Below are positions 1,463 through 55,101 of a DNA stretch of 55,101 nucleotides, one piece after another. Every line of letters begins with the position of its first letter. The first letter of the stretch is position 1. This DNA comes from a virus (taxonomy: Duplodnaviria > Caudoviricetes): IMG/VR virus record IMGVR_UViG_3300024265_000006, positions 1 through 55,101 of that record, one strand, 5' to 3'. The position numbers and the translations under genes are program-made. Under the pieces are notes generated by a model. The model was given only the letters and a program-made list of their open reading frames with translations, had not been told where the DNA came from and did no database searches.

Positions 1463-1623
1463 AATTTATCCTCCAACTCATTAACCTGACTAACTAGCGT
1501 TTCGTGCTTTGGGTGGCTTGGTTTTTCTCGCGCCCGATAAGTCCTCAAAGCGATATCTTGAAGTTTGCAGAACTCATTAAGGTTGTAGCCCTTGTTTTTA
1601 ATCTTTCGAGTTAGTGTATTCAT
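1459..1623 (-). CDS. Small 54-aa protein, possible HTH (not in ORF track)
   Basis: Hand translation MNTLTRKIKNKGYNLNEFCKLQDIALRTYRAREKPSHPKHETLVSQVNELEDKL; overlaps the cca end, and its TGA overlaps the GTG start of the TOPRIM gene. Confidence 0.6.
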   Translation of the reverse strand: MNTLTRKIKNKGYNLNEFCKLQDIALRTYRAREKPSHPKHETLVSQVNELEDKL

Positions 1624-2851
1624 TATATACTCCTCTTATTGCGTCAATTCTTGAAACTCTAATGGCCTCACCTATAGCCAACCCTGACTTACCTTGATTT
1701 AACATTTTTGTTGATATTTCTTTTGTATCAACTCGCTTAACTGCCATTATGCAATCCCACATATAATCCTTTTGTGGGTAAGGCTTGTTAGGGTGGTCGC
1801 CACCACGACCTTTAGCATCAGCCTCACAAGCCTCTAAAAAGTGATAAAACCTTGCCTTCTTATCTATCGCATTAGTTGCCGTAAATAAGTTCATTATTGA
1901 TTTTGGGCGCATGGGTTTGTTTGCTCCTCGACCTAAACAACCATGAACCTTTGTATGGTATTCACATGTAATCAATGCAAGATCGCGATAGCTATTAGGA
2001 ACCTTCCATTTCTCACAAAAGGATCTAATGACATCAAGGCCTTTTATTTCATGTTGCAATGCATTGCCCGTTTCGCTATATGACAAAGGCTTACCAAAGT
2101 CATGGCACAAGCCAGCAAAAGCAACATGCGAACCAAAATTATTCGCGGCATAATTAACAACCATGGCAGTATGTATACCAACATTACCTTCTGGATGATG
2201 CTCTTTGTTTTGAGGGGTGGACCATAAAGCGTCAACCTCAGGGAACAAACCAAGCTCTGATAAGTTTGTAAAAAACAATCCAGCTCTATGACCGCTTAGA
2301 GCTTTCTCCATTTCCTTCCAGACCCTTTCTGGCGTTAAACTATCTAGATCACCTTGACTAGCCATGCTTTCAATTTTAATCATGGTGTTATCATCGATAG
2401 ACCAGTAGCCATTTAATGTAGATTGAAATCTAAACGCCCTAAGAATCCGAACTGGATCATCATTAAACGCATCTGATACATGCCTGATGATTTTATCGTT
2501 AATATCTGAGATACCTTGAAGTGGATCTATGTATTCACCAGTTTCGATATTTTTAGCTATGGCGTTAATAGTCAAGTCTCTACGGGATAAATCGTCCATA
2601 AGAGTTACGTCTTTGCCAAAATAACAATCGAAATCTTGGTATTTATCACCCGTGCTTTCTTCTGTTCTGGCTAGCGCATATTCATCGCCAGACTCAGGGT
2701 GTAGAAATACAGGGAAGTTGGATCCGACCTGTTTAAATCCTTTTGACAACATCTCTTCAGGAGTACTACCAACAACAACGTAGTCGAAATCTTTAGATAC
2801 TAGACCCAATAGCGTATCTCTAACCGCCCCACCAACCAAGTAAATCTTCAT
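1598..2851 (-). CDS. cca: Multifunctional CCA tRNA nucleotidyltransferase with HD phosphatase domain
   Basis: Class II NTase motifs YLVGGAVRD, DFDYVV, EYALARTE, DLSRRDLTINA, DDPVRILR and TPERVWKE, plus HD domain HHPEG...H...LCHDFGK; 417 aa, collinear with gammaproteobacterial Cca. Confidence 0.96.
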   Translation of the reverse strand: MKIYLVGGAVRDTLLGLVSKDFDYVVVGSTPEEMLSKGFKQVGSNFPVFLHPESGDEYALARTEESTGDKYQDFDCYFGKDVTLMDDLSRRDLTINAIAKNIETGEYIDPLQGISDINDKIIRHVSDAFNDDPVRILRAFRFQSTLNGYWSIDDNTMIKIESMASQGDLDSLTPERVWKEMEKALSGHRAGLFFTNLSELGLFPEVDALWSTPQNKEHHPEGNVGIHTAMVVNYAANNFGSHVAFAGLCHDFGKPLSYSETGNALQHEIKGLDVIRSFCEKWKVPNSYRDLALITCEYHTKVHGCLGRGANKPMRPKSIMNLFTATNAIDKKARFYHFLEACEADAKGRGGDHPNKPYPQKDYMWDCIMAVKRVDTKEISTKMLNQGKSGLAIGEAIRVSRIDAIRGVYNEYTNSKD

Positions 2852-6354: not shown

Positions 6355-6606
6355 TTATTTGCCACTTAGCTTGACGTAACAATCATTAGAATGACCGCCA
6401 GCGACCGCTCCATCCCTTTGGGGGCAAGATAGGTAGACCACATCGCCATTCACTGTTTTTAGCTCAAGCCCTACCCAGTTTGAGCCTGGCTTATCATCTT
6501 CATGTTGCGGCTCTTTATTGGCTATTGATATAATCACGTATAATAAAAAAACAATAGGTGATGCGACCATTGCCCATAGCGCCAAATTTAAAGGTTTCAT
6601 TTTCAT
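6355..6606 (-). CDS. Hypothetical protein with N-terminal TM segment
   Basis: LALWAMVASPIVFLLYVIISI followed by a small Cys-pair domain. Confidence 0.6.
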   Translation of the reverse strand: MKMKPLNLALWAMVASPIVFLLYVIISIANKEPQHEDDKPGSNWVGLELKTVNGDVVYLSCPQRDGAVAGGHSNDCYVKLSGK

Positions 6607-6797
6607 TGGTTACCCCTTTATTTATTTTCAGCTTTAATTATATTTGTGGCAATACAGTTATTAATGAAGGTTCTATTCTTGTAGCCTGCTGGCAATAATG
6701 TTATTGCGAAATTTATTAACCAGATGGCCACCTTAATGCTTATTTGCTTGTGCATTGTCATTGTTGTTCCTTATTTATTTTTAAACATTAGTATCAA

Positions 6798-7163
6798 TTA
6801 TATTTTCAATTCCGCTTCATATTTTTCCGTTGAGCTCTGAATTTTTCTAATTATGTATTCGTTGTATTTTTCGACAAATAAGTTAACTGCCGCTCTGGAC
6901 GCTCTATTTTTGCCTTCCATGCCGCCCGTATAATCACTTATTGAAGAGTAAGGGTGGTTAGCGGTCCAGACGGTTCGGGTAACGCCAGTGGAGTTATTTG
7001 TTAAGCTTATGGTGTGCTCTTTACAATCAGAAAAAGAGAATTCACCGCTTAATGTTGTACCGAGCCACCAATCCCAGATATCACAATACGTCCCTTGGTA
7101 AAATCCCATTAATCTTAATACCAAAATTTCATGCATCCAGCTTACGCTTTTTAGTTTTTTCAT
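6798..7163 (-). CDS. Hypothetical protein
   Basis: 121-aa ORF with a GGAG RBS. Confidence 0.6.
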   Translation of the reverse strand: MKKLKSVSWMHEILVLRLMGFYQGTYCDIWDWWLGTTLSGEFSFSDCKEHTISLTNNSTGVTRTVWTANHPYSSISDYTGGMEGKNRASRAAVNLFVEKYNEYIIRKIQSSTEKYEAELKI

Positions 7164-7213
7164 TATTTATTCTCCAATTATTAAATTTAAATAGTGGTCA
7201 TTAGATACGTTAG

Positions 7214-7732
7214 TTATGGGCGCCAATCTGTTTCCCACTGGTTAATTTTCCCAACATTACAGTCCTCACATAATATTTGTAGGTTATTAAGATCTAATGC
7301 CGATTCGGGATGAGTTGATTTCGGTAAAATGTGATCAACATGCATTGTCAGACCATCCGACGGAGATCCGCCGCAACAACAGCATTTATTTCCGTACTTC
7401 TCAAACGCCTGGTATCTTAATATTTTCCAAGATCTGCTATTAAAGAACTCCTTTCTTGTTCTGTTAACCACTACGCAAGGCTTTTTAGTTTTTAGAAATG
7501 CCAACCTTCTTGCTAGCGACTTTATTTGCTGATTAGGGTGTATGTCACCCCTTACTACAACATCAAGCTTTGCTGACACACAAATAACTAATTCAAGCGT
7601 TGAGTATTTGCTTTTTGGCAAGCCAACGAATGAAGCACATTTTGCTATGGCGTCATCGATAGCGTTTAGGTTAGTAACCCTTCTTGCTTGCCGCTTTGCC
7701 TTCTTCTCTGATTTACTCAACTTAACTTTCAT
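7214..7732 (-). CDS. HNH endonuclease with basic N-terminal extension
   Basis: FFNSRSWKILR...CCCCG...HVDHILP...NLQILCEDCNVGK is a Zn-binding HNH signature; the first ~95 aa are Lys/Arg-rich. Confidence 0.92.
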   Translation of the reverse strand: MKVKLSKSEKKAKRQARRVTNLNAIDDAIAKCASFVGLPKSKYSTLELVICVSAKLDVVVRGDIHPNQQIKSLARRLAFLKTKKPCVVVNRTRKEFFNSRSWKILRYQAFEKYGNKCCCCGGSPSDGLTMHVDHILPKSTHPESALDLNNLQILCEDCNVGKINQWETDWRP

Positions 7733-7744
7733 ATTTAACCTCTT

Positions 7745-8200
7745 GAATAGATTCTTAGCGATATTAACCCTATACCAATAAAGGCATTAGGTAATATCAC
7801 AAAACTCTTGAATGAGTTCCCACGCGGCTAATATCTACCATAATTGTATTAGCTTGCCAGCCTTCCGCTTAATGAAGCGTCCTGTTAACTTGCTCTGGCT
7901 TTATTACTCAAGCGCTAGTTTGTAACTAAAGTTCTACTAGCTTTAAACCATAAAAGAACTGAGAGCATTACTGCCGACATATAAAGAATGGTCGAGTGGT
8001 AGAGGGGTGATTTAATTTGATGTGGTTTTGAATTGAACTTTGATTTGATGCACTGTTTACTTTCGTAAGGGCAATAAAAAAGGCCAATTGCTAAGTCCGA
8101 TACACGGGGTAGAGATATACATGTAGGAGTTTTCCCGCATGTATAAGACTTAACAATTAACCCTATGTATATTCTCTAATTAAACTAGGCCTCCTACAGC
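7745..8200 (-). ncRNA. Candidate structured noncoding leader RNA upstream of the HNH gene
   Basis: No ORF over 60 aa on the transcribed strand; at least eight predicted stems, one followed by U6; lies downstream of a consensus-like promoter. Confidence 0.5.
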
Positions 8201-8209
8201 CACAAAACA

Positions 8210-8238
8210 ATTATATCAAACTAGCGTTTATCCTTCAA
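8210..8238 (-). promoter_or_regulatory. Sigma70 promoter TTGAAG-17-TATAAT with extended -10 TG
   Basis: Minus strand reads ttgaag gataaacgctagtttga tataat. Confidence 0.75.
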
Positions 8239-8247
8239 CTTTTGAAT

Positions 8248-8439
8248 TTACTTATCACCCCGAGATAGAATGTAGATATTAGCAATGTTCATCATAATAA
8301 AATACGCAGCTCTACTAGGGCTTGACCAATTAGAAATCCAGAAATAATTAATATCCCATGCTATAAATGCCGCAACTACACACATTAAAAAGTGGCACAT
8401 AATTAATTTAACAACCCACAATAATGTCACATTCTTCAT
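8248..8439 (-). CDS. Small membrane protein
   Basis: 63 aa with two hydrophobic segments. Confidence 0.55.
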   Translation of the reverse strand: MKNVTLLWVVKLIMCHFLMCVVAAFIAWDINYFWISNWSSPSRAAYFIMMNIANIYILSRGDK

Positions 8440-8744
8440 GTCTTTTCTCCGCGAGCTTCGGCTAGTAGCGCGTCAATAGATGATGACAAGGCGTCAAGCT
8501 CGATTAACGGATGGGTATGCTTATCTAGCGCTAACAATGTTTCGCTTACTGATTTTAGCATTCTGTACATCTTAGGCGCTGCGGCGATCAGGTGAGCGTT
8601 AGCTTCTGTTCTAGCGTCGATATCCATACACCCACCGGCAGCATCGTACTTACCTGGTTTGCCATGTAATATTACGGTGTTTTTTACATAGTCGACATTT
8701 TTATTGACAACCGACCACTTGCCCTGTGTGAATTTCTCTTTCAT
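8436..8744 (-). CDS. Conserved phage hypothetical protein (FTxGxW...ANAHLIAAAP family)
   Basis: KFTQGKW and EANAHLIAAAPKMY motifs, common in phage early regions. Confidence 0.7.
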   Translation of the reverse strand: MKEKFTQGKWSVVNKNVDYVKNTVILHGKPGKYDAAGGCMDIDARTEANAHLIAAAPKMYRMLKSVSETLLALDKHTHPLIELDALSSSIDALLAEARGEKT

Positions 8745-8796
8745 CGTTATTTCCTTATTTGCACCGGCCGATTAATCAAAGCCGGTGGGTTTTTAT

Positions 8797-9090
8797 TTAA
8801 ATCAATCGAGATTCTAATTGTGAAATCAAATCATGAATATTCGATAGCTTGTCGCCAGCCATCCCAGGCAATCTATCTATGACCTGAATCAAGTTGTTAG
8901 GATTCATACTGACCTCTTTTGGCTTATCACCACTAGTCAACGCCTCTCCATAAACACCAAGTCTTTCGTTTAAGCTGTCCAATCGATTAAGAACATCATT
9001 AATCTGATGGTAAACAGACATTAGTGATACATACTTTTCTTCGGTGCATGACACTGCTTGTCCGCATGCGCTTTCTGTTGATTTATTCAT
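8797..9090 (-). CDS. Hypothetical coiled-coil protein
   Basis: 97-aa ORF with a GAGGA RBS. Confidence 0.6.
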   Translation of the reverse strand: MNKSTESACGQAVSCTEEKYVSLMSVYHQINDVLNRLDSLNERLGVYGEALTSGDKPKEVSMNPNNLIQVIDRLPGMAGDKLSNIHDLISQLESRLI

Positions 9091-9123
9091 GTTACTTTCC
9101 TCTTGTTATGTTTTATTGATTAA

Positions 9124-9540
9124 TTAAATATTAATACCGTTTAAATGATCTATCTCATGCTGAACGCAAAAAGCAGACAGAGCGCGAACTTTCTTTTTAA
9201 TCGGATTCCAGTTTTCATCAAATCCTTCAACTACAACAATGTTGTCTCGCTTCATTGTTGATTGCTTGCCTGGGAACGATAAGCAACCTTCTTCGCTATT
9301 CTTCACCTTGCCTGATAGCTTTGTTATTTCTGGGTTGATAATGGCCGTAGAAAAGCCGTTAGTGTGGACAACTATCACCCGCTTTAATACACCGACCTGA
9401 TTAGCAGCAAGGCCAATGCCGTTATTGTCTGCCATGATTCGCCACATTTCAGACACAAGCTCTTTTACATCGCTACCAAGTTCCACGTCGGCAGCCTTTT
9501 GGTGAAGCGTTGCGAAATCATTCTTTTTTAATTCGAGCAT
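9124..9540 (-). CDS. def: Peptide deformylase, minimal phage type
   Basis: All three PDF motifs are present: GIGLAANQVG, EGCLS and QHEIDHLNG; 138 aa, ending immediately after motif 3 in ...GINI. Confidence 0.97.
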   Translation of the reverse strand: MLELKKNDFATLHQKAADVELGSDVKELVSEMWRIMADNNGIGLAANQVGVLKRVIVVHTNGFSTAIINPEITKLSGKVKNSEEGCLSFPGKQSTMKRDNIVVVEGFDENWNPIKKKVRALSAFCVQHEIDHLNGINI

Positions 9541-9601
9541 GTCATCTCTCTTTATTTAATTACGACCCAATTAAAGGCCTTCTTTTTTTATTTACTCTTA
9601 G

Positions 9602-9630
9602 ACATTAATCGTTATTCTCTACGGTGTCAA
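9602..9630 (-). promoter_or_regulatory. Sigma70-like promoter TTGACA-17-TAATGT upstream of def
   Basis: Shares CTATTGACR-N7-GAATA with two other leftward promoters. Confidence 0.7.
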
Positions 9631-9647
9631 TAGGCTTATTGACATAA

Positions 9648-9669
9648 TAAAGCCCACTGTGCATGGGCT
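9648..9669 (-). terminator. Probable intrinsic terminator
   Basis: Minus strand AGCCCA-tgcacag-TGGGCT followed by TTATT. Confidence 0.55.
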
Positions 9670-9690
9670 AATTATTACAAGTTGAATAGT

Positions 9691-12615: not shown

Positions 12616-12929
12616 CGTTTTGAGCTCCTTTTAAATTTGCCGCGGCGTTGCTTGCGGTGGTTTGGTGTGTAATCTTGGTGGTTCGGCGCGAGGTGTATCC
12701 GTGGGTCATATGTCTCCTCCGGCATTATTAATTCCAGACTTAGATCTGGGATAAGTGTAGTTGTTATTTCCCACGGTGCAGATTGTCGAAATTCCTCGGC
12801 TGCTTTCCTAGCTGCTTGACCAAGACCAAGTATAGCAAGTATCATCGAGGCAGCTATATTGTGATCTACAATTAAAACCCTAATTGGCTCGCCAGCTCCG
12901 CAGCACGGGCAGTTTTTATGTGTACTCAT
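12612..12929 (-). CDS. Hypothetical protein
   Basis: 105 aa with N-terminal CPCCG and a basic C-terminus. Confidence 0.55.
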   Translation of the reverse strand: MSTHKNCPCCGAGEPIRVLIVDHNIAASMILAILGLGQAARKAAEEFRQSAPWEITTTLIPDLSLELIMPEETYDPRIHLAPNHQDYTPNHRKQRRGKFKRSSKR

Positions 12930-17865: not shown

Positions 17866-18138
17866 TCATTCATGTCTAGCCCCTTTTGGATAAACCATGT
17901 CGGAAGTCAATGCCTTAACTTTGATAGCCTCGTTGTTTTGCTTTCGTAGCTTATACATTAACTCGCGGAACCTTTGATCTGAATCAACTCGCGCCTGCAC
18001 TCTTGCTTGATGCCGTAACGCTGAGTTTTCTACGCTAATCTTATCGCCTAGCGCTTCATGCTGCGCCATTTGCTCGATGGCTCCGGCCAATGCTTCGGCA
18101 TTAGTTGCATAACATCGGCGAGACATCAGGCCGCTCAC
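17866..18138 (-). CDS. Hypothetical protein
   Basis: 90-aa ORF. Confidence 0.5.
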   Translation of the reverse strand: MSGLMSRRCYATNAEALAGAIEQMAQHEALGDKISVENSALRHQARVQARVDSDQRFRELMYKLRKQNNEAIKVKALTSDMVYPKGARHE

Positions 18139-18299
18139 TTTTTGCCCCCAAATAACCGCCTGTGCTTTGCGGCCACTGCGTCAGCTAAAATCTTAGTGCG
18201 AGCCTTTCCAACTGGAATATTATCAACAGCTTTAATTTCCTGTTGTTGCTTAATTGTTAGGTCGGACATTTGAACGTCCATATTTTTAGTTTTCATTTG

Positions 18300-18456
18300 C
18301 TACCTCGCTTCGTTTTGATGCGTTCATAATTACACGCTATCAAATTACTGTCAACAACTTTATACCTTTAAAAATACCTTTGATTTATCCTTGAAAATAT
18401 ACTTGACTTACTAAAGCCTCACATAGTAACGTATCTAAAACAAAGGGAGAGCCACC
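18300..18456. promoter_or_regulatory. Divergent control region between the leftward and rightward arms
   Basis: Coding strand switches here; leftward TTGACA at ~18349-18354, rightward TTGACT at ~18403-18408, and ATACCTTT repeated at 18362 and 18374. Confidence 0.6.
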
Positions 18457-18675
18457 ATGACAGCACAGCAATTCACATACAGACCGGTAACAATCGATAT
18501 AGCAGGCCAAGAAATAGAGTTAGAAGTCTCTGGCGAGATAGATTCAAGCGGCAAAGTCTTTTTAGATGAGCTCTACCATAAAGCCGACAAAATCTATTCA
18601 GATCACGTTGAAGACATGCTAAAAATTCAGGTGGTTCGTGATTCGATTGAGAATCAGATAAAGGGGCGTAAATAA
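18457..18675 (+). CDS. Hypothetical protein
   Basis: 72 aa with a GGGAG RBS; first rightward gene. Confidence 0.65.
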   Translation: MTAQQFTYRPVTIDIAGQEIELEVSGEIDSSGKVFLDELYHKADKIYSDHVEDMLKIQVVRDSIENQIKGRK

Positions 18676-18908
18676 TGAGGCGGTTAACACAGCAAGAGAT
18701 TGATAAAGCGCCTGACTGGGCAACGCATTACTTCATTGGAGCAAGAAGTGAAAAGGTTATATTTATCAACAAGAGCAGTAAGCACTATAAATACCAAGGA
18801 GCCGTTGTAACTAGAAGTATTAGCGACGGTGACAACGATCTATTTATAAGAAAGTCAAAACCAATACTAAGCAAGCCGATCAAACTAACAGTGAGCGACT
18901 TATCATGA
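18675..18908 (+). CDS. Hypothetical protein, APxWATHY family
   Basis: MRRLTQQEIDKAPDWATHY; N-terminus shared with 25370-25738. Confidence 0.65.
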   Translation: MRRLTQQEIDKAPDWATHYFIGARSEKVIFINKSSKHYKYQGAVVTRSISDGDNDLFIRKSKPILSKPIKLTVSDLS

Positions 18909-19075
18909 ACTGGGATAAATTTTGTAATAGCCCGTGGGCTATCGTCTTAGCCGTCATTATAGGAGTAGCCATCAATGCCATATAAAAAACACGCAAAACG
19001 TTGGTTTTGGTTCTTGTTTGTAGTATTCGCAATTATCGAAGCCTATTCATTCGTTAATATAATTGAGGTGATGCA

Positions 19076-19384
19076 ATGGTAAATTTTAAATTCAAAGAAG
19101 GTGATTACGTTGAAATAATAAAATCACAATCAGGAAGTGAAGGGCACAGATTTATTATTAGTAAGTTTGGGGTTAAAAATCTAGTTAACGAAGATGGTAC
19201 GCTTTACGCAAAAGAACGCAAAAGCTATAAGACAGACTTGAAAACTACAAGTATCGGCAACTTTAAATGGTCGGAAGAGTCAAATTTAAAGCTAGTAAAC
19301 CCAGATACTGACGCTATATCAAAGTCAAGCTTCAGTGAAATTATAAACGAAATATCTAATTTCTCACTAATAACGGAGCAATAA
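19076..19384 (+). CDS. Hypothetical protein (SH3-like FKxGDxV start)
   Basis: 102 aa with a GAGG RBS. Confidence 0.6.
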   Translation: MVNFKFKEGDYVEIIKSQSGSEGHRFIISKFGVKNLVNEDGTLYAKERKSYKTDLKTTSIGNFKWSEESNLKLVNPDTDAISKSSFSEIINEISNFSLITEQ

Positions 19385-20723: not shown

Positions 20724-20732
20724 CCACCCACC

Positions 20733-20756
20733 AAGCCCTCACTCCGAGGGCTTTTT
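20733..20756 (+). terminator. Intrinsic terminator between convergent genes
   Basis: AAGCCCTC-actcc-GAGGGCTT-TTT. Confidence 0.75.
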
Positions 20757-20765
20757 GCCAAAAAG

Positions 20766-21068
20766 TTACGCTTTGTCGTGTAGGTTCTGTTTTAGAAGGT
20801 AGCCCTCAAGCTGCCAAATCTTATTAACAGCGTTTGATCTCGCAATCTTTCGCCCCAGTTCAGCGTTAAAGTTTTCAGGACTAGCACACGCAGACTCACC
20901 AATAACAGTGTAGCCATTTTCAAGTGTCAGCAAGCACGCGGTAAACGTTGTGCCAGCAAAAACATGATACTGCTCGGACGCGATAACTTGCTCTAGTCGC
21001 TCTGGTGTTACCCGTGGAGCCGTTAAGCCTTTTTCGATAATTTCTTTTTCAATCTTTAGATCAGTCAT
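20766..21068 (-). CDS. N4 Gp49/Sf6 gp66-family protein (Acb4-like nucleotide-sponge candidate)
   Basis: TAPRVTPERL...TACLLTLENGYTVIGESACASPENFNAELGRKIA...IWQLEGYLL is the family signature; likely start MTDLKIE at 21068. Confidence 0.85.
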   Translation of the reverse strand: MTDLKIEKEIIEKGLTAPRVTPERLEQVIASEQYHVFAGTTFTACLLTLENGYTVIGESACASPENFNAELGRKIARSNAVNKIWQLEGYLLKQNLHDKA

Positions 21069-21153
21069 TTTATCAATCTCTTTTTCAGTCTTGCCAAATT
21101 GGCCCATTAATTATAACACGTTTTCTTTTGCCAAAAACAAATCAATCAAAGTG

Positions 21154-21191
21154 TTGACGTGGACACGAATATAATTAATAATGTGTACACA
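21154..21191 (+). promoter_or_regulatory. Promoter region with GTGGACAC and TGTGTACACA palindromes
   Basis: TTGACG at 21154, AT-rich -10 region, near-palindrome at 21159-21166 and perfect 10-bp palindrome at 21182-21191. Confidence 0.6.
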
Positions 21192-21211
21192 ATCTAAATA
21201 AAGGAAGTGTC

Positions 21212-21493
21212 ATGCAAACTCAATCAGGATTAAAGGCAATAATACTAGTAACCGAGTTTAATCAATCAGTAGTTGTTGAAGAAACCAGCGGTAATATTAA
21301 CTTCATTGAAGATATAAAAAATTACAACGGTTACGTCGAAGATATTTTTTATGAAATGGAAACGCCGACCGAAAAAGGCTTTTATGAATTCAATGGCCAA
21401 GCTGATGTTAGCACTGATATTAACGGTCATATCGACGAGGTAAATTACTCAGGTGAATTCGTAAAAGTTGACGAGTTCAAATTCAAACAATAA
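21212..21493 (+). CDS. Hypothetical acidic protein
   Basis: 93 aa with an AAGGA RBS. Confidence 0.6.
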   Translation: MQTQSGLKAIILVTEFNQSVVVEETSGNINFIEDIKNYNGYVEDIFYEMETPTEKGFYEFNGQADVSTDINGHIDEVNYSGEFVKVDEFKFKQ

Positions 21494-46846: not shown

Positions 46847-47499
46847 AGGTTTTCAATCCTGTTCTGTAGATAAATAACTTTAGCGGCGGCTGGTACGGTT
46901 TCCGAAACATTTAACTCGTCGCAGTCGCCTTTGTTTTGCAACATTTGCGTGGCGTGGAGCATGATGGCCTCTTGAATACAATCTGGGACAAAAGTGTCAT
47001 CAACGCCAAAACCTGCAACAAATTCAATCTCAATCGCCTGCAACCGGTTATCGGCATCTGTCGGCCAGACTTGGTTGTCTCGCGTTAGTATTTTCGAGTA
47101 GTCATTTTCAAAAGTATTGTAAAAAACCGATGATGCCACTGTTGTTAGCACATCACCTTTCAAATACTTAACGCTGTTAACTGCCTGCAATTTAGATCGC
47201 CGCAGCTCAAAGCCGACATTACCTGAATTTGTTAAAGAACTCAGATTGAAAACTTCAGTGCCGGGGAAGTTATCCCGAAACGTTTTATAAGTTCGGTTAA
47301 TAAAATCACGTCTAGTCAATTGCTCGCCGTACTTGGTGGCCGCTTCCAAATAAAGTGTTAGCAGTAAGTCTGATACCGACGCATTCGTTTTGGCGTGAGC
47401 TTTAAACGTCGCCAAGGGGACTGCAGGGCCAGCCGGCGCCGCAATCACTTCATAAGTAAACGCTCTGCCGTGAAAAATCGGCCGGCTTCTGGCAAACAT
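46843..47499 (-). CDS. Head-tail connector protein (HK97 gp6/phiE125 gp8-like)
   Basis: AVPLATFKAH...LEAAT...EQLTRR...IEFVAGFG....VP..IQEAI. Confidence 0.85.
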   Translation of the reverse strand: MFARSRPIFHGRAFTYEVIAAPAGPAVPLATFKAHAKTNASVSDLLLTLYLEAATKYGEQLTRRDFINRTYKTFRDNFPGTEVFNLSSLTNSGNVGFELRRSKLQAVNSVKYLKGDVLTTVASSVFYNTFENDYSKILTRDNQVWPTDADNRLQAIEIEFVAGFGVDDTFVPDCIQEAIMLHATQMLQNKGDCDELNVSETVPAAAKVIYLQNRIENL

Positions 47500-53434: not shown

Positions 53435-54904
53435 TTATATGATCATAACCCTTACCTTTCTAGCTTTCTGCAGTTGCGCTAGCTCAGATAGCGCCCACAC
53501 TACCGCATCCACACGGTTTGGAGACTTACCTTTTGCTTTACCGGTAAGCGGATCAAGATCCTGCATTTCATCCTCCATTAAGGATAGGCCTTCGTTATGC
53601 GCAACATAACCGAGCTCATACAATGCAGCAACTGGCTCAGACCTTGCAACCTTGCCTTTACTCGCGTGGACCCTGGTTATCTTACCTTTAAATCCGGCGT
53701 TTCTTAATGTTGACTCACACATGTCGCCGCCTTGATTTGTCTCTATCACTATTTCATTTGCATCGTATTTTTCATACGCAGCAATTGCAGCCTGAGCCCA
53801 TTCGAGAGTGCTACCATTGCGTGTAAAATCAGCATCAACAGAATACTGGTTTTCTTGGTGCTTATGAGCCACCACAACGCCATGTTCATCACTCGTAGCA
53901 TTGTTACTTACGGCCGGATCAACTGATACGACTGTTCTGGTTATCTCGCCGAATTTCTTCGCTCGCGCTCTCCGGATCATGTCATCAGTCCAAACTTGAT
54001 TATCTTCATTGCGCTCAAGTGGGTCTTGCATGTATTGGGCTCGGTGCTTGCGCCTGTGTGATTCAAGTGCCGCTCTGTGTTCTTCCCTGTGCTTAAATTC
54101 CCATAGCCAACCATCATCAAGGCCGTGTTTATATTCTATTCCATGAGTGTATTGCGATGGATATGCTTTTGAATTATCTATTTCAACGGGCAAATTTAGA
54201 TGATGCCACATCTCACCACTACCCCCACGCAACAAATATCCTGATAAGTCATTCCAGTGAATTCGTTGCATAATAACTAAAATTGGCACTTCTTCAATCA
54301 TCACGCGAGAAGATATTGTTTCGTTGTAGTTATTATTTACAGACTCTCGCTTAAGGTCAGAATATGCATCTTCAGGCTTTACTGGATCGTCAATAATCAG
54401 TGCGCCTGTGAAGTTATCAGCTGTATGCTCAGCAGTGCCAGCACGGAACCCTGTAACCTGACCCATTGTTGAGGTTGCTCTTACTCCGCCGCCGAATTCG
54501 TTCCACCAGGTTCCTTTGCTGTCGGCATCGTCTTGCGGTCGCATTGGCCACATCTCTTGGTATTCAATTGATTTGACCGTTATACGTGTCTTTGCCGAGT
54601 TATCTAGGGCGAGACCATCAGAGTAGGATAGATGAAGGAATTTTGCTCGTTTATTCCTGGCGAGACCGTTAGCCATAAAACTAATTGAAGCAATTTCTGT
54701 TTTTGTATAACCAGGAGGTATATTAATAATGCCTCTCTTGATTTTACCGTTAAACACGTCCTCCATAAATCTAAACATAACTTCGTGATGGGGTGCCACT
54801 ATCATTTTATTGCCAAGGCGTTGTTTAAAGAAATATCGAGTGGCATACTCGAGGCTTAATTCACACTCAATTTTTCTTACTTGCGTGATAGCTTCAGCAA
54901 TCAT
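53435..54904 (-). CDS. terL: Terminase large subunit
   Basis: INIPPGYTKTE Walker A variant, LIIDDPVK Walker B, MQRIH, nuclease VSVDPA and SPNRVDA. Confidence 0.96.
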   Translation of the reverse strand: MIAEAITQVRKIECELSLEYATRYFFKQRLGNKMIVAPHHEVMFRFMEDVFNGKIKRGIINIPPGYTKTEIASISFMANGLARNKRAKFLHLSYSDGLALDNSAKTRITVKSIEYQEMWPMRPQDDADSKGTWWNEFGGGVRATSTMGQVTGFRAGTAEHTADNFTGALIIDDPVKPEDAYSDLKRESVNNNYNETISSRVMIEEVPILVIMQRIHWNDLSGYLLRGGSGEMWHHLNLPVEIDNSKAYPSQYTHGIEYKHGLDDGWLWEFKHREEHRAALESHRRKHRAQYMQDPLERNEDNQVWTDDMIRRARAKKFGEITRTVVSVDPAVSNNATSDEHGVVVAHKHQENQYSVDADFTRNGSTLEWAQAAIAAYEKYDANEIVIETNQGGDMCESTLRNAGFKGKITRVHASKGKVARSEPVAALYELGYVAHNEGLSLMEDEMQDLDPLTGKAKGKSPNRVDAVVWALSELAQLQKARKVRVMII

Positions 54905-55101
54905 CTTTTTCAAGCATTTGTTTTCTTACTTCCATGAACTCTTCTTTGCTCAATTGAATTGAAGCCACTACGCCACTTTGTTCAATTTTTTGTGGCTTAT
55001 TGTATCCTTCCATATCTGCCAGCTGCTTCATTGCAGCAAGTGGGGAGTGCTGCTTAATTTTAAATCCTTCCTTGCCGGCGGTCACTTCGGCGATTGAGGC
55101 C
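54894..55101 (-). CDS. terS: Terminase small subunit, 3' part
   Basis: KIKQHSPLAAMKQLADMEGYNKPQKIE...; same frame as the ORF starting at 528; overlaps the terL start. Confidence 0.88.
   Translation of the reverse strand, partial: ASIAEVTAGKEGFKIKQHSPLAAMKQLADMEGYNKPQKIEQSGVVASIQLSKEEFMEVRKQMLEKDDC
54975..55101. repeat. Terminal direct repeat, right copy
   Basis: Identical to 1-127. Confidence 0.95.

Follow-up and report, generated by a model that had tools for sequence, protein, structure and literature searches.

A structured RNA module of unrelated marine phages, probably independent of the HNH endonuclease gene beside it

The closest described counterpart of a structured RNA preceding an HNH nuclease gene is HEARO, the omega RNA of IscB, which we take to be Rfam family RF02033. 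Phages also carry free-standing homing endonuclease genes, such as seg and mob of T4, with SegB located within a tRNA gene cluster, and a Shine-Dalgarno sequence partly buried in RNA structure has been reported for other phage homing endonucleases. Large RNAs with complex folds are rare, and almost all known ones serve fundamental jobs, in catalysis or scaffolding; for GOLLD and ROOL, two kinds of large structured RNA found in phages and prophages, we know of no established function, and their models are presumably included in the Rfam release searched here. In phage lambda, the late promoter pR' is followed by the 6S RNA and the terminator tR', and in type III toxin-antitoxin systems (ToxIN) a promoter, a direct-repeat RNA, a terminator-like hairpin and a protein gene form one transcript. 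Here, we analysed a gap of 515 nt (7733-8247) without credible open reading frame (ORF) in IMGVR_UViG_3300024265_000006 (Duplodnaviria; Caudoviricetes), a complete virus record bearing direct terminal repeats, whose 55,101 bases are called the window below. The gap is bounded by the ORF of an HNH endonuclease, 7214-7732(-), and by a 63-aa ORF, 8248-8439(-). An earlier note, made from the letters alone, had proposed that it encodes an undescribed noncoding RNA acting together with the HNH protein, in the manner of HEARO/IscB.

We conclude that the gap probably holds a self-contained RNA module of unrelated marine phages, and that the HNH gene is not its partner but a separately mobile cassette, a reading drawn from sequence comparison. 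Two starting observations of the earlier note are borne out. The gap contains the longest noncoding stretch of the genome, 7782-8247 (466 nt), which is free of ORFs of at least 40, at least 50 or at least 60 aa, the runner-up measuring 309 nt. It is also hairpin-dense on the (-) strand, with a folding z of -3.45 and 0/100 shuffles as good, compared with a z of -1.73 on the plus strand. The conserved part of the RNA and its elements are as follows.

7740-7998, (-) strand: conserved structured RNA core of about 260 nt, from the family alignment and covariance model R1.
7988-7993/7946-7951, (-) strand: helix P1, from duplex comparison in 15/15 members.
7965-7974, (-) strand: GNRA hairpin P1a, a helix of the core.
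7955-7960/7930-7935, (-) strand: pseudoknot PK1, from pair counts, joining the P1 internal loop to the P2 loop.
7936-7941/7914-7919, (-) strand: helix P2, from pair counts.
7906-7912/7742-7748, (-) strand: long-range helix P3, seen without compensatory changes.
7895-7899/7856-7860, (-) strand: helix P4, from pair counts.
7875-7879/7866-7870, (-) strand: helix P5, from pair counts and natural variants.
7847-7853/7827-7833, (-) strand: helix P6, from pair counts.
7801-7820, (-) strand: hairpin A, from duplex comparison only.
7758-7800, (-) strand: hairpin B, from pair counts.
7805-7813, (-) strand: repeat copy R1, AUUCAAGAG, inside hairpin A.
7740-7748, (-) strand: repeat copy R2, AUUCAAGAG, in the 3' strand of P3, overlapping the HNH Shine-Dalgarno sequence AAGAGG (7744-7739).

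The family comprises 15 members from marine viral contigs, metagenomic contigs and cultured Vibrio phages. Covariance model R1, which covers the central 137 positions of the core, matches the window at 7823-7963(-) with 111 bits (E about 1e-17). In the model-fitted alignment of the 15 members, 92.2% of cells are paired, compared with 67.2% after shuffling and 29-46% with partners slid, and both-sided changes occur in 19/25 pairs; the observed values were reached by 0/500 shuffles. A MAFFT alignment of the 3' two-thirds, not fitted to structure, gave 89.9% paired cells versus 73.2% shuffled, with both-sided changes in 20/33 pairs. In this alignment, hairpin B displays both-sided changes in 6/8 pairs, and P3 is 83% paired with changes only from G-U to G-C. 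P1 is present in 15/15 members with differing sequences, its own-partner duplexes averaging -9.7 kcal/mol versus -5.2 for 210 cross pairings. Frequent G-U pairs are seen on the transcribed (-) strand only, and the helices are retained although the G+C content of the modelled core spans 37-56% among members. In metagenome contigs of runs X3 and X4, 7878 C>T and 7867 G>A co-occur, converting a G-C pair of P5 into A-U; since these variants are compensatory, P5 gains independent support. Taken together, the alignments point to a conserved structured RNA whose helices survive in diverged members by compensatory change; six covarying stem helices (P1, P2, P4-P6 and hairpin B) and the pseudoknot PK1 are predicted, and P3 and hairpin A lack compensatory changes. 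Covariation upstream of HNH homologs, which the earlier note had put forward as a test, is thus found, the aligned long gaps containing compensatory helices.

The individual stems drawn in the earlier note fared unevenly. AGTTCT/AGAACT (7955-7960/7930-7935) is conserved, as the pseudoknot PK1, with 71.6% of cells paired and both-sided changes in 4/5 pairs. The TGCTCT/AGAGCA pairing that was thought to enclose it has no counterpart in relatives, as judged by reading the alignments by eye, overlaps the covarying P4 and is probably not real. Family pair counts support the stems at 7866-7879 (P5), 7827-7853 (P6) and 7758-7800 (hairpin B); the stem at 7803-7818 (hairpin A) is seen by duplex comparison alone, where its own pairings score barely above cross-lineage ones. 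We do not claim a second pseudoknot between GGGGCU of the P4 loop and GGCUCC: examined by eye, both strands are nearly invariant, and the pairing is broken in locus L019.

As far as Rfam 15 and the papers searched show, the RNA is undescribed as a class; its mode of action may prove to be of a known kind. A cmscan of the window against Rfam 15, a check suggested with the original proposal, returned no match at the gathering threshold, and at E up to 10 over 7100-8500 the only match was a weak one to a microRNA model. ARAGORN found no tRNA or transfer-messenger RNA (tmRNA) gene in the whole 55-kb genome and nothing at the RNA in related loci, where Rfam calls tRNAs only elsewhere in the locus. 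Full-text paper searches gave no description of the RNA, and the supplementary candidate lists of PMC10690425 may contain it. Within these sources, and with a structure that is conserved, the earlier description as an undescribed noncoding RNA stands.

The family was assembled by several routes. A blastn search with the RNA region of locus L003 gave matches in unannotated gaps of seven Vibrio phage records; in the two inspected, phages 1.206.O and 1.064.O, a gap of ~517 nt lies ahead of a 65-aa ORF. Two degenerate patterns of the core retrieved 10 IMG/VR contigs, all of them confirmed by covariance model R1, which also detects three metagenome loci collected via their HNH genes (L073, L050 and L052). 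The sole pattern match in bacterial genome contigs was a chance one, located inside a coding gene and unconfirmed by the model. Besides HNH-like genes, no gene was found to be common to the RNA-bearing loci, among which only partial contigs could be compared. In metagenome run X2, depth ran at 190-620 across 7858-8153 and dropped to zero or nearly so in the flanking bins; therefore, many phages in the sample share the RNA and not its neighbours. On one contig (L113), the ORF downstream of the RNA, from ~11272 on the RNA strand, starts like the 199-aa ORF upstream (~9078-9677; MNICNK...); the RNA module there seems to lie between two paralogous genes, although the contig ends too early to bear this out.

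Type B, a second subtype comprising L001, L004-L006 and Pseudoalteromonas phage HS5, by eye shares the layout of the core. At E up to 1, covariance model R1 gives no match in L001, L004-L006 or L103, all of type B, and we propose kinship because of the layout shared by eye, for example GGCUCCG followed by the repeat R and, further on, UUCACCAA followed by R in L001. In phage HS5, the type B copy (L103 1459-2027, corresponding to NC_070825.1 ~20726-21294) has the minor head protein gene on one side and two genes for DNA methyltransferases on the other; a pair of tiny ORFs annotated inside it on the opposite strand are probably not genes.

How tightly is this RNA tied to the HNH gene? Three features define the HNH side of the locus.

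7214-7732, (-) strand: HNH endonuclease ORF, 172 aa, with an N-terminal three-helix domain (predicted, residues 7-82) and an HNH domain (96-172).
7169-7742, (-) strand: HNH cassette, present or absent as a unit, comprising ribosome-binding site, ORF and 3' spacer.
6798-7163, (-) strand: next gene, 121 aa, without family match, directly after the RNA in the HNH-less allele.

RNA and HNH gene are found apart in both directions. There are 11 RNA-first lineages, consisting of the 10 IMG/VR contigs and the 1.206.O group. The gene following the RNA is this HNH in three of them (L106, identical to L003; L110, identical to L019; and L112), a T5orf172/MUG113 nuclease-like gene in one (L104), and another gene in the remaining seven: a phosphoesterase, a small ORF ahead of a head-tail adaptor, or unknowns. 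A tblastn search with the HNH protein found it in none of the seven RNA-bearing Vibrio phage records; only phages 2.095.A and 2.095.B were matched at E 1e-20 or better. Conversely, full-length HNH relatives (53-67% identity), collected from IMG/VR, metagenomes (the best 80 of 151) and Vibrio phage 2.095.A, fall into two groups. Long upstream gaps of ~440-660 nt are present in the window, L001, L003, L004/L005, L006, L007 and L019, and short leaders of about 20-230 nt, without the RNA, in L008/L026, L011/L022, L015/L024, L017, L023 and L027/L028, where covariance model R1 detects nothing. Upstream of the promoter, a 68-nt block of L004 recurs in L015 and L023 at 93-94% identity; these two then continue directly with HNH, at the point where L004 and L006 carry ~480 extra nt. 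Since the HNH loci of L015 and L023 do without this ~480-nt insert, HNH does not need the long RNA. In L007, a tRNA-Gly(UCC) gene (2854-2927) lies ~70 nt upstream of HNH inside a gap of ~570 nt, the rest of which (~2426-2853) gives no match to covariance model R1.

The window's own locus also exists without HNH. Among contigs of four marine metagenome runs aligned to 6600-8800 at a likeness of at least 80%, one 455-nt contig of run X6 (record 24, depth 6) passes from 7168 to 7743 with 16 other letters in place of the 574 nt between them. This single contig retains the RNA (7743-7998) and the region where the next gene starts, and lacks exactly the HNH cassette. The HNH gene is thus best read, as far as the sequences tell, as a free-standing homing-type endonuclease gene inserted between repeat copy R2 and the ribosome-binding site of the next gene. 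The recurrent adjacency (3/11, plus the one T5orf172 case) is above chance, and homing-type insertion next to conserved sequence explains it better than would a role of the RNA as guide or scaffold. Across 21 non-independent pairs, identity of the RNA does not clearly correlate with that of the HNH domain (rho 0.18, p 0.45), so co-descent with loss and repeated insertion are indistinguishable. The RNA-HNH functional module of the earlier note is not supported by these data.

The protein itself is a small HNH nuclease. Its HNH domain, already recognised in the earlier note, matches Pfam PF01844 (E 3.3e-07, residues 117-162), and PHROG HNH families match the ORF down to E 2.9e-15; the HVDH motif and the Cys pairs are invariant in HNH alignments. 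Pfam returns only HNH and HNH_5, and a scan at E up to 0.1 gave no RuvC-family match, so that the reported absence of a visible RuvC in a protein of small size holds. The structure model (mean pLDDT 83.9) predicts a three-helix N-terminal domain followed by the HNH domain, and the ~95-aa N-terminal extension that had been pointed out stands in so far as it is a separate region. A Foldseek search with the model found no match at E 0.001 or better, the top one being the HNH protein of phage GVE2 (E 0.013), and the fold search matched the three-helix domain to no solved structure.

The direct repeat R is the hallmark of the family. In the window, ATTCAAGAG occurs at 7805-7813 and at 7740-7748, the second copy beside the ribosome-binding site, exactly as first noticed. 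A third copy lies at 46969-46977, making three matches in the window versus 0.51 expected; when a trans target of R was sought in the window, matches were not above chance. The repeat occupies a fixed place in every member examined: an automated search recovered it in 13/15, and the other two, one with an indel, were recognised by eye. Copy 1 lies just after the conserved GGCUCC(G) and copy 2 65-87 nt downstream, after (U)CACCA, with hairpin B between them. The repeat sequence is specific to each lineage, with a mean own-lineage score of 8.8 versus 4.8 (sd 1.4) for 204 cross-lineage pairs, and is equally present in members without HNH.

Upstream of the core, the gap contains three further elements.

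8210-8238, (-) strand: predicted sigma-70-type promoter, with TTGAAG at 8238-8233, a 17-nt spacer and TGnTATAAT, the -10 element at 8215-8210; predicted start ~8203.
8076-8163, (-) strand: long imperfect hairpin with T-run, resembling an intrinsic terminator; 8163-8147 pairs with 8098-8082, with an additional upper stem, and TTTTTT is at 8081-8076.
8057-8068, (-) strand: TTAC-GAAA-GTAA tetraloop hairpin, shared with the relative L109 and no other member.

The TTGAAG-17-TATAAT motif is in place as described, with 10/12 consensus matches and a TG before the -10 element, and is a plausible promoter; the number of promoter-like sites in the region is not raised (9 found versus 10.0 expected from shuffles). 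The terminator-like 5' domain is present in that the hairpin 8163-8082 and TTTTTT can be read from the sequence, but a terminator scan of 6500-9500 gave no site, which we attribute to the large apical loop of this hairpin. In 8/15 members, the core is preceded by a promoter and then a stable hairpin with T-run, the hairpin sequences being unrelated, and the hairpin looks like a terminator that most transcripts would meet ahead of the core. The tetraloop, although present in the window, is kept in L109 alone. In a metagenome contig (record 13 of run X3), 8003-8199 is swapped for 188 different letters and both the promoter (8199-8238) and the core are kept: the segment with the 5' hairpin and linker behaves like a swappable cassette. 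In L105 (~12830-12870(-)) and L111 (~2620-2660(-)), stretches resembling a tRNA T-arm and 3' end lie just upstream of the core, where promoter and hairpin would usually be; no tRNA is called at these places by ARAGORN or by Rfam.

Of the ways in which such a module could act, we favour a stand-alone, trans-acting or processed RNA, to which we give somewhat better than an even chance, over a cis-acting leader, which we hold clearly below one. Host RNA polymerase would start near 8203 and many transcripts would stop at the T-run hairpin, those reading through carrying the core and continuing into HNH and the downstream genes. The folded core would then persist as a stable RNA, acting irrespective of the gene that follows. 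With the HNH Shine-Dalgarno sequence lying partly in the 3' strand of P3, translation of the nuclease would probably be kept low. In mixed infections, the nuclease probably cuts HNH-less relatives near the junction between the RNA and the next gene and is copied in by repair.

Several observations weigh against a self-contained module with an unrelated nuclease beside it. The direct repeat, for all its constancy, has no explanation in it. No terminator follows the core, and by eye the next gene begins shortly past repeat copy R2 in most members, making a cis-acting leader a serious alternative. HNH is the next gene in 3/11 RNA-first lineages and in three further metagenome members found through HNH, far above the frequency of a random neighbour, which leaves room for some functional link between the two. 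The order of promoter, T-run hairpin and core is seen in only 8/15 members and the terminator scan was empty; the promoter, the start site, the termination and the ends of the RNA are predicted. P3 shows no both-sided changes. Finally, the shuffle controls leave sequence relatedness in, and the alignment made with covariance model R1 is fitted to that model.

The strongest competitor is a cis-acting leader or switch, in which the core would be a 5' untranslated regulator of the following gene, responding to a ligand, a protein or transcription kinetics, with the repeats as alternative partners of the 5' strand of hairpin A. We regard it as possible, at well under an even chance. The core is always co-oriented with the next gene without intervening terminator, and in the window both the P3 3' strand and repeat copy R2 overlap the Shine-Dalgarno sequence; compact phage genomes would be expected to show co-orientation and short spacing anyway, and the ribosome-binding-site overlap occurs in some members only, being clear in the window and L073 alone. 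Alternative pairing predicts two segments competing for one strand. The hairpin A 5' strand with repeat copy R1 indeed reaches -9.4 kcal/mol versus -7.2 cross-lineage, but with repeat copy R2 it barely exceeds the cross-lineage controls (-6.6 versus -5.7, sd 2.2), so this pairing is weakly supported. The genes after the core are unrelated (HNH, T5orf172, phosphoesterase, a small ORF ahead of a head-tail adaptor, unknowns), and the HNH insertion, evidently tolerated, parts the RNA from its former neighbour. Neither of the marks of a riboswitch or cis-acting leader, a shared downstream function and a platform over a terminator or ribosome-binding site in most members, was found.

A bolder version of the favoured trans-acting RNA is doubtful. 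The RNA might be a new large phage RNA, a ribozyme or the scaffold of a ribonucleoprotein, with R (8-14 nt, placed after CCG and CCA) as a programmable target-pairing element; or it might be a tRNA-like processed RNA, perhaps extended or charged; and nucleases such as HNH and T5orf172 might exploit or target R. ACCA follows P3 in relatives, and the third pair of P3 is G-U in 9/15 members and G-C in 4/15. This helix with ACCA recalls a tRNA acceptor end, similar to that of tRNA-Ala, a likeness that is suggestive only. The window copy lacks CCA after P3, where most of its RNA relatives have a conserved one.

Similarly unlikely, and in our judgement slightly more so, is a late-type promoter and terminator unit resembling lambda pR'-6S RNA-tR', with the core as an antiterminated leader or as a cis antitermination RNA of the put/EAR kind. 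In its favour, a promoter is followed ~125 nt on by a strong T-run hairpin in 8/15 members, the unrelated hairpin sequences notwithstanding. The other 7/15 members lack this arrangement, no antiterminator gene was identified, and the position of the module varies: small early-type genes surround it here, and head genes flank it in phages HS5 and 2.095.A. Moreover, the known put/EAR elements lie upstream of the terminators they overcome, and here the core lies downstream.

An RNA-nuclease module, with the RNA as guide, scaffold or antitoxin of the compact HNH and R perhaps as a guide-like specificity element, is very unlikely. It would account for the recurrent adjacency (window, L003, L019, L112, L073, L050, L052, and type B L001 and L004-L006), for the position of HNH, invariably just after repeat copy R2, and for the guide-like variation of R among lineages. 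R is found equally without HNH, however, and the RNA is not followed by HNH in 8/11 RNA-first lineages, HNH lacks the RNA in six lineages, and an HNH-less allele exists at the window's own locus. In addition, the RNA matches neither HEARO nor any other Rfam family, and the modelled protein appears to consist only of the three-helix and HNH domains, with a phage HNH as its best structural neighbour.

A DNA-level element is more improbable still, be it a replication origin, a packaging site or a recombination or transposition remnant in which hairpin B would be a miniature inverted-repeat element and R its target duplication. An imperfect palindrome flanked by two direct repeats of 9-17 bp would suit such an element, but many of the compensatory changes are G-U pairs, workable on the transcribed strand only. 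All members examined have both repeat copies, and an empty site was found in none. Copies of one old duplication should drift apart; instead they are alike within lineages (8.8) and unlike between them (4.8), and we rejected the miniature inverted-repeat element. A cos or pac site beside a terminase-associated HNH was also rejected for this genome, the terminase gene lying far off at 53435-54913. That the gap is a decayed ORF or a chance spacer structure, the first of which the earlier note had named as fatal to its proposal, is close to negligible: small ORFs do overlap it (39 aa, 7968-8087(-); 37 aa, 7812-7925(+); the end of a 79-aa ORF, 7542-7781(+)), but conservation follows base pairs and not codons, the longest open frame in the cores spans 30-71 codons in an inconsistent frame, and the helices persist across members of 37-56% G+C.

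The module sits in a minus-strand gene block that runs from ~18.1 kb down to position 1. Downstream of the RNA/HNH locus are a tRNA nucleotidyltransferase gene (1598-2851) and a primase gene, and the genes for terminase, portal and major head occupy 48.7-54.9 kb. The minus- and plus-strand gene blocks diverge at 18138-19076, which coincides with the turn of the cumulative GC skew. A phage peptide deformylase gene lies at 9124-9540(-) (PHROG E 2e-36). The phage encodes the CCA-adding tRNA nucleotidyltransferase (1598-2851(-), PHROG E 6.5e-135), yet has no tRNA or tmRNA gene by ARAGORN.

With its pseudoknot and its many unpaired positions that do not vary, the new class is a promising place to look for new RNA biochemistry, since this RNA travels as a unit between unrelated marine phages and is conserved beyond its neighbouring genes. 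Cultured carriers are available: Pseudoalteromonas phage HS5 and Vibrio phages from the Nahant collection. Of the Vibrio phages, 1.206.O has the RNA and no HNH, and 2.095.A has a type B RNA together with HNH.

Compared with the known systems, the locus resembles ToxIN in its promoter, RNA with direct repeats, terminator-like hairpin and protein gene, but the hairpin precedes the repeats, only two short repeats lie inside a large fold, and the gene that follows differs between members and encodes no ToxN-type RNase. It shares with lambda pR'/tR' a strong predicted promoter, a terminator-like hairpin within ~125 nt and further genes beyond; by contrast, no Q-like factor is known here, the genome position varies, and a conserved structured core follows the terminator-like hairpin. 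Like HEARO/IscB, it has a structured RNA of a few hundred nt directly upstream of an HNH-protein gene on mobile DNA. It differs in that the RNA matches no Rfam model, HEARO included, that the protein has 172 aa and no RuvC-family match instead of a split RuvC with inserted HNH in ~400 aa or more, and that RNA and nuclease are found apart where HEARO/IscB would have them co-occur obligately. HNH beside a structured RNA does not by itself imply an RNA-guided nuclease. With GOLLD and ROOL, the RNA has in common a complex pseudoknotted fold and a spread among unrelated phages; it differs from them in having no Rfam match, a smaller core (about 260-320 nt in the family), a lineage-specific direct repeat, a strongly conserved CCA after P3, and no adjoining tRNA gene in the loci checked. 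Phage homing endonucleases provide the last comparison. The N-terminal three-helix domain of the HNH protein, which matches no solved structure, sets it apart from them. The likeness is as follows: a small nuclease gene with its own ribosome-binding site lies between conserved neighbours with precise presence and absence (one contig, depth 6), its Shine-Dalgarno sequence is partly within the predicted P3, and it adjoins a conserved RNA gene, as SegB does. The locus offers a clean natural case of insertion next to an RNA gene by an HNH gene of the homing type.

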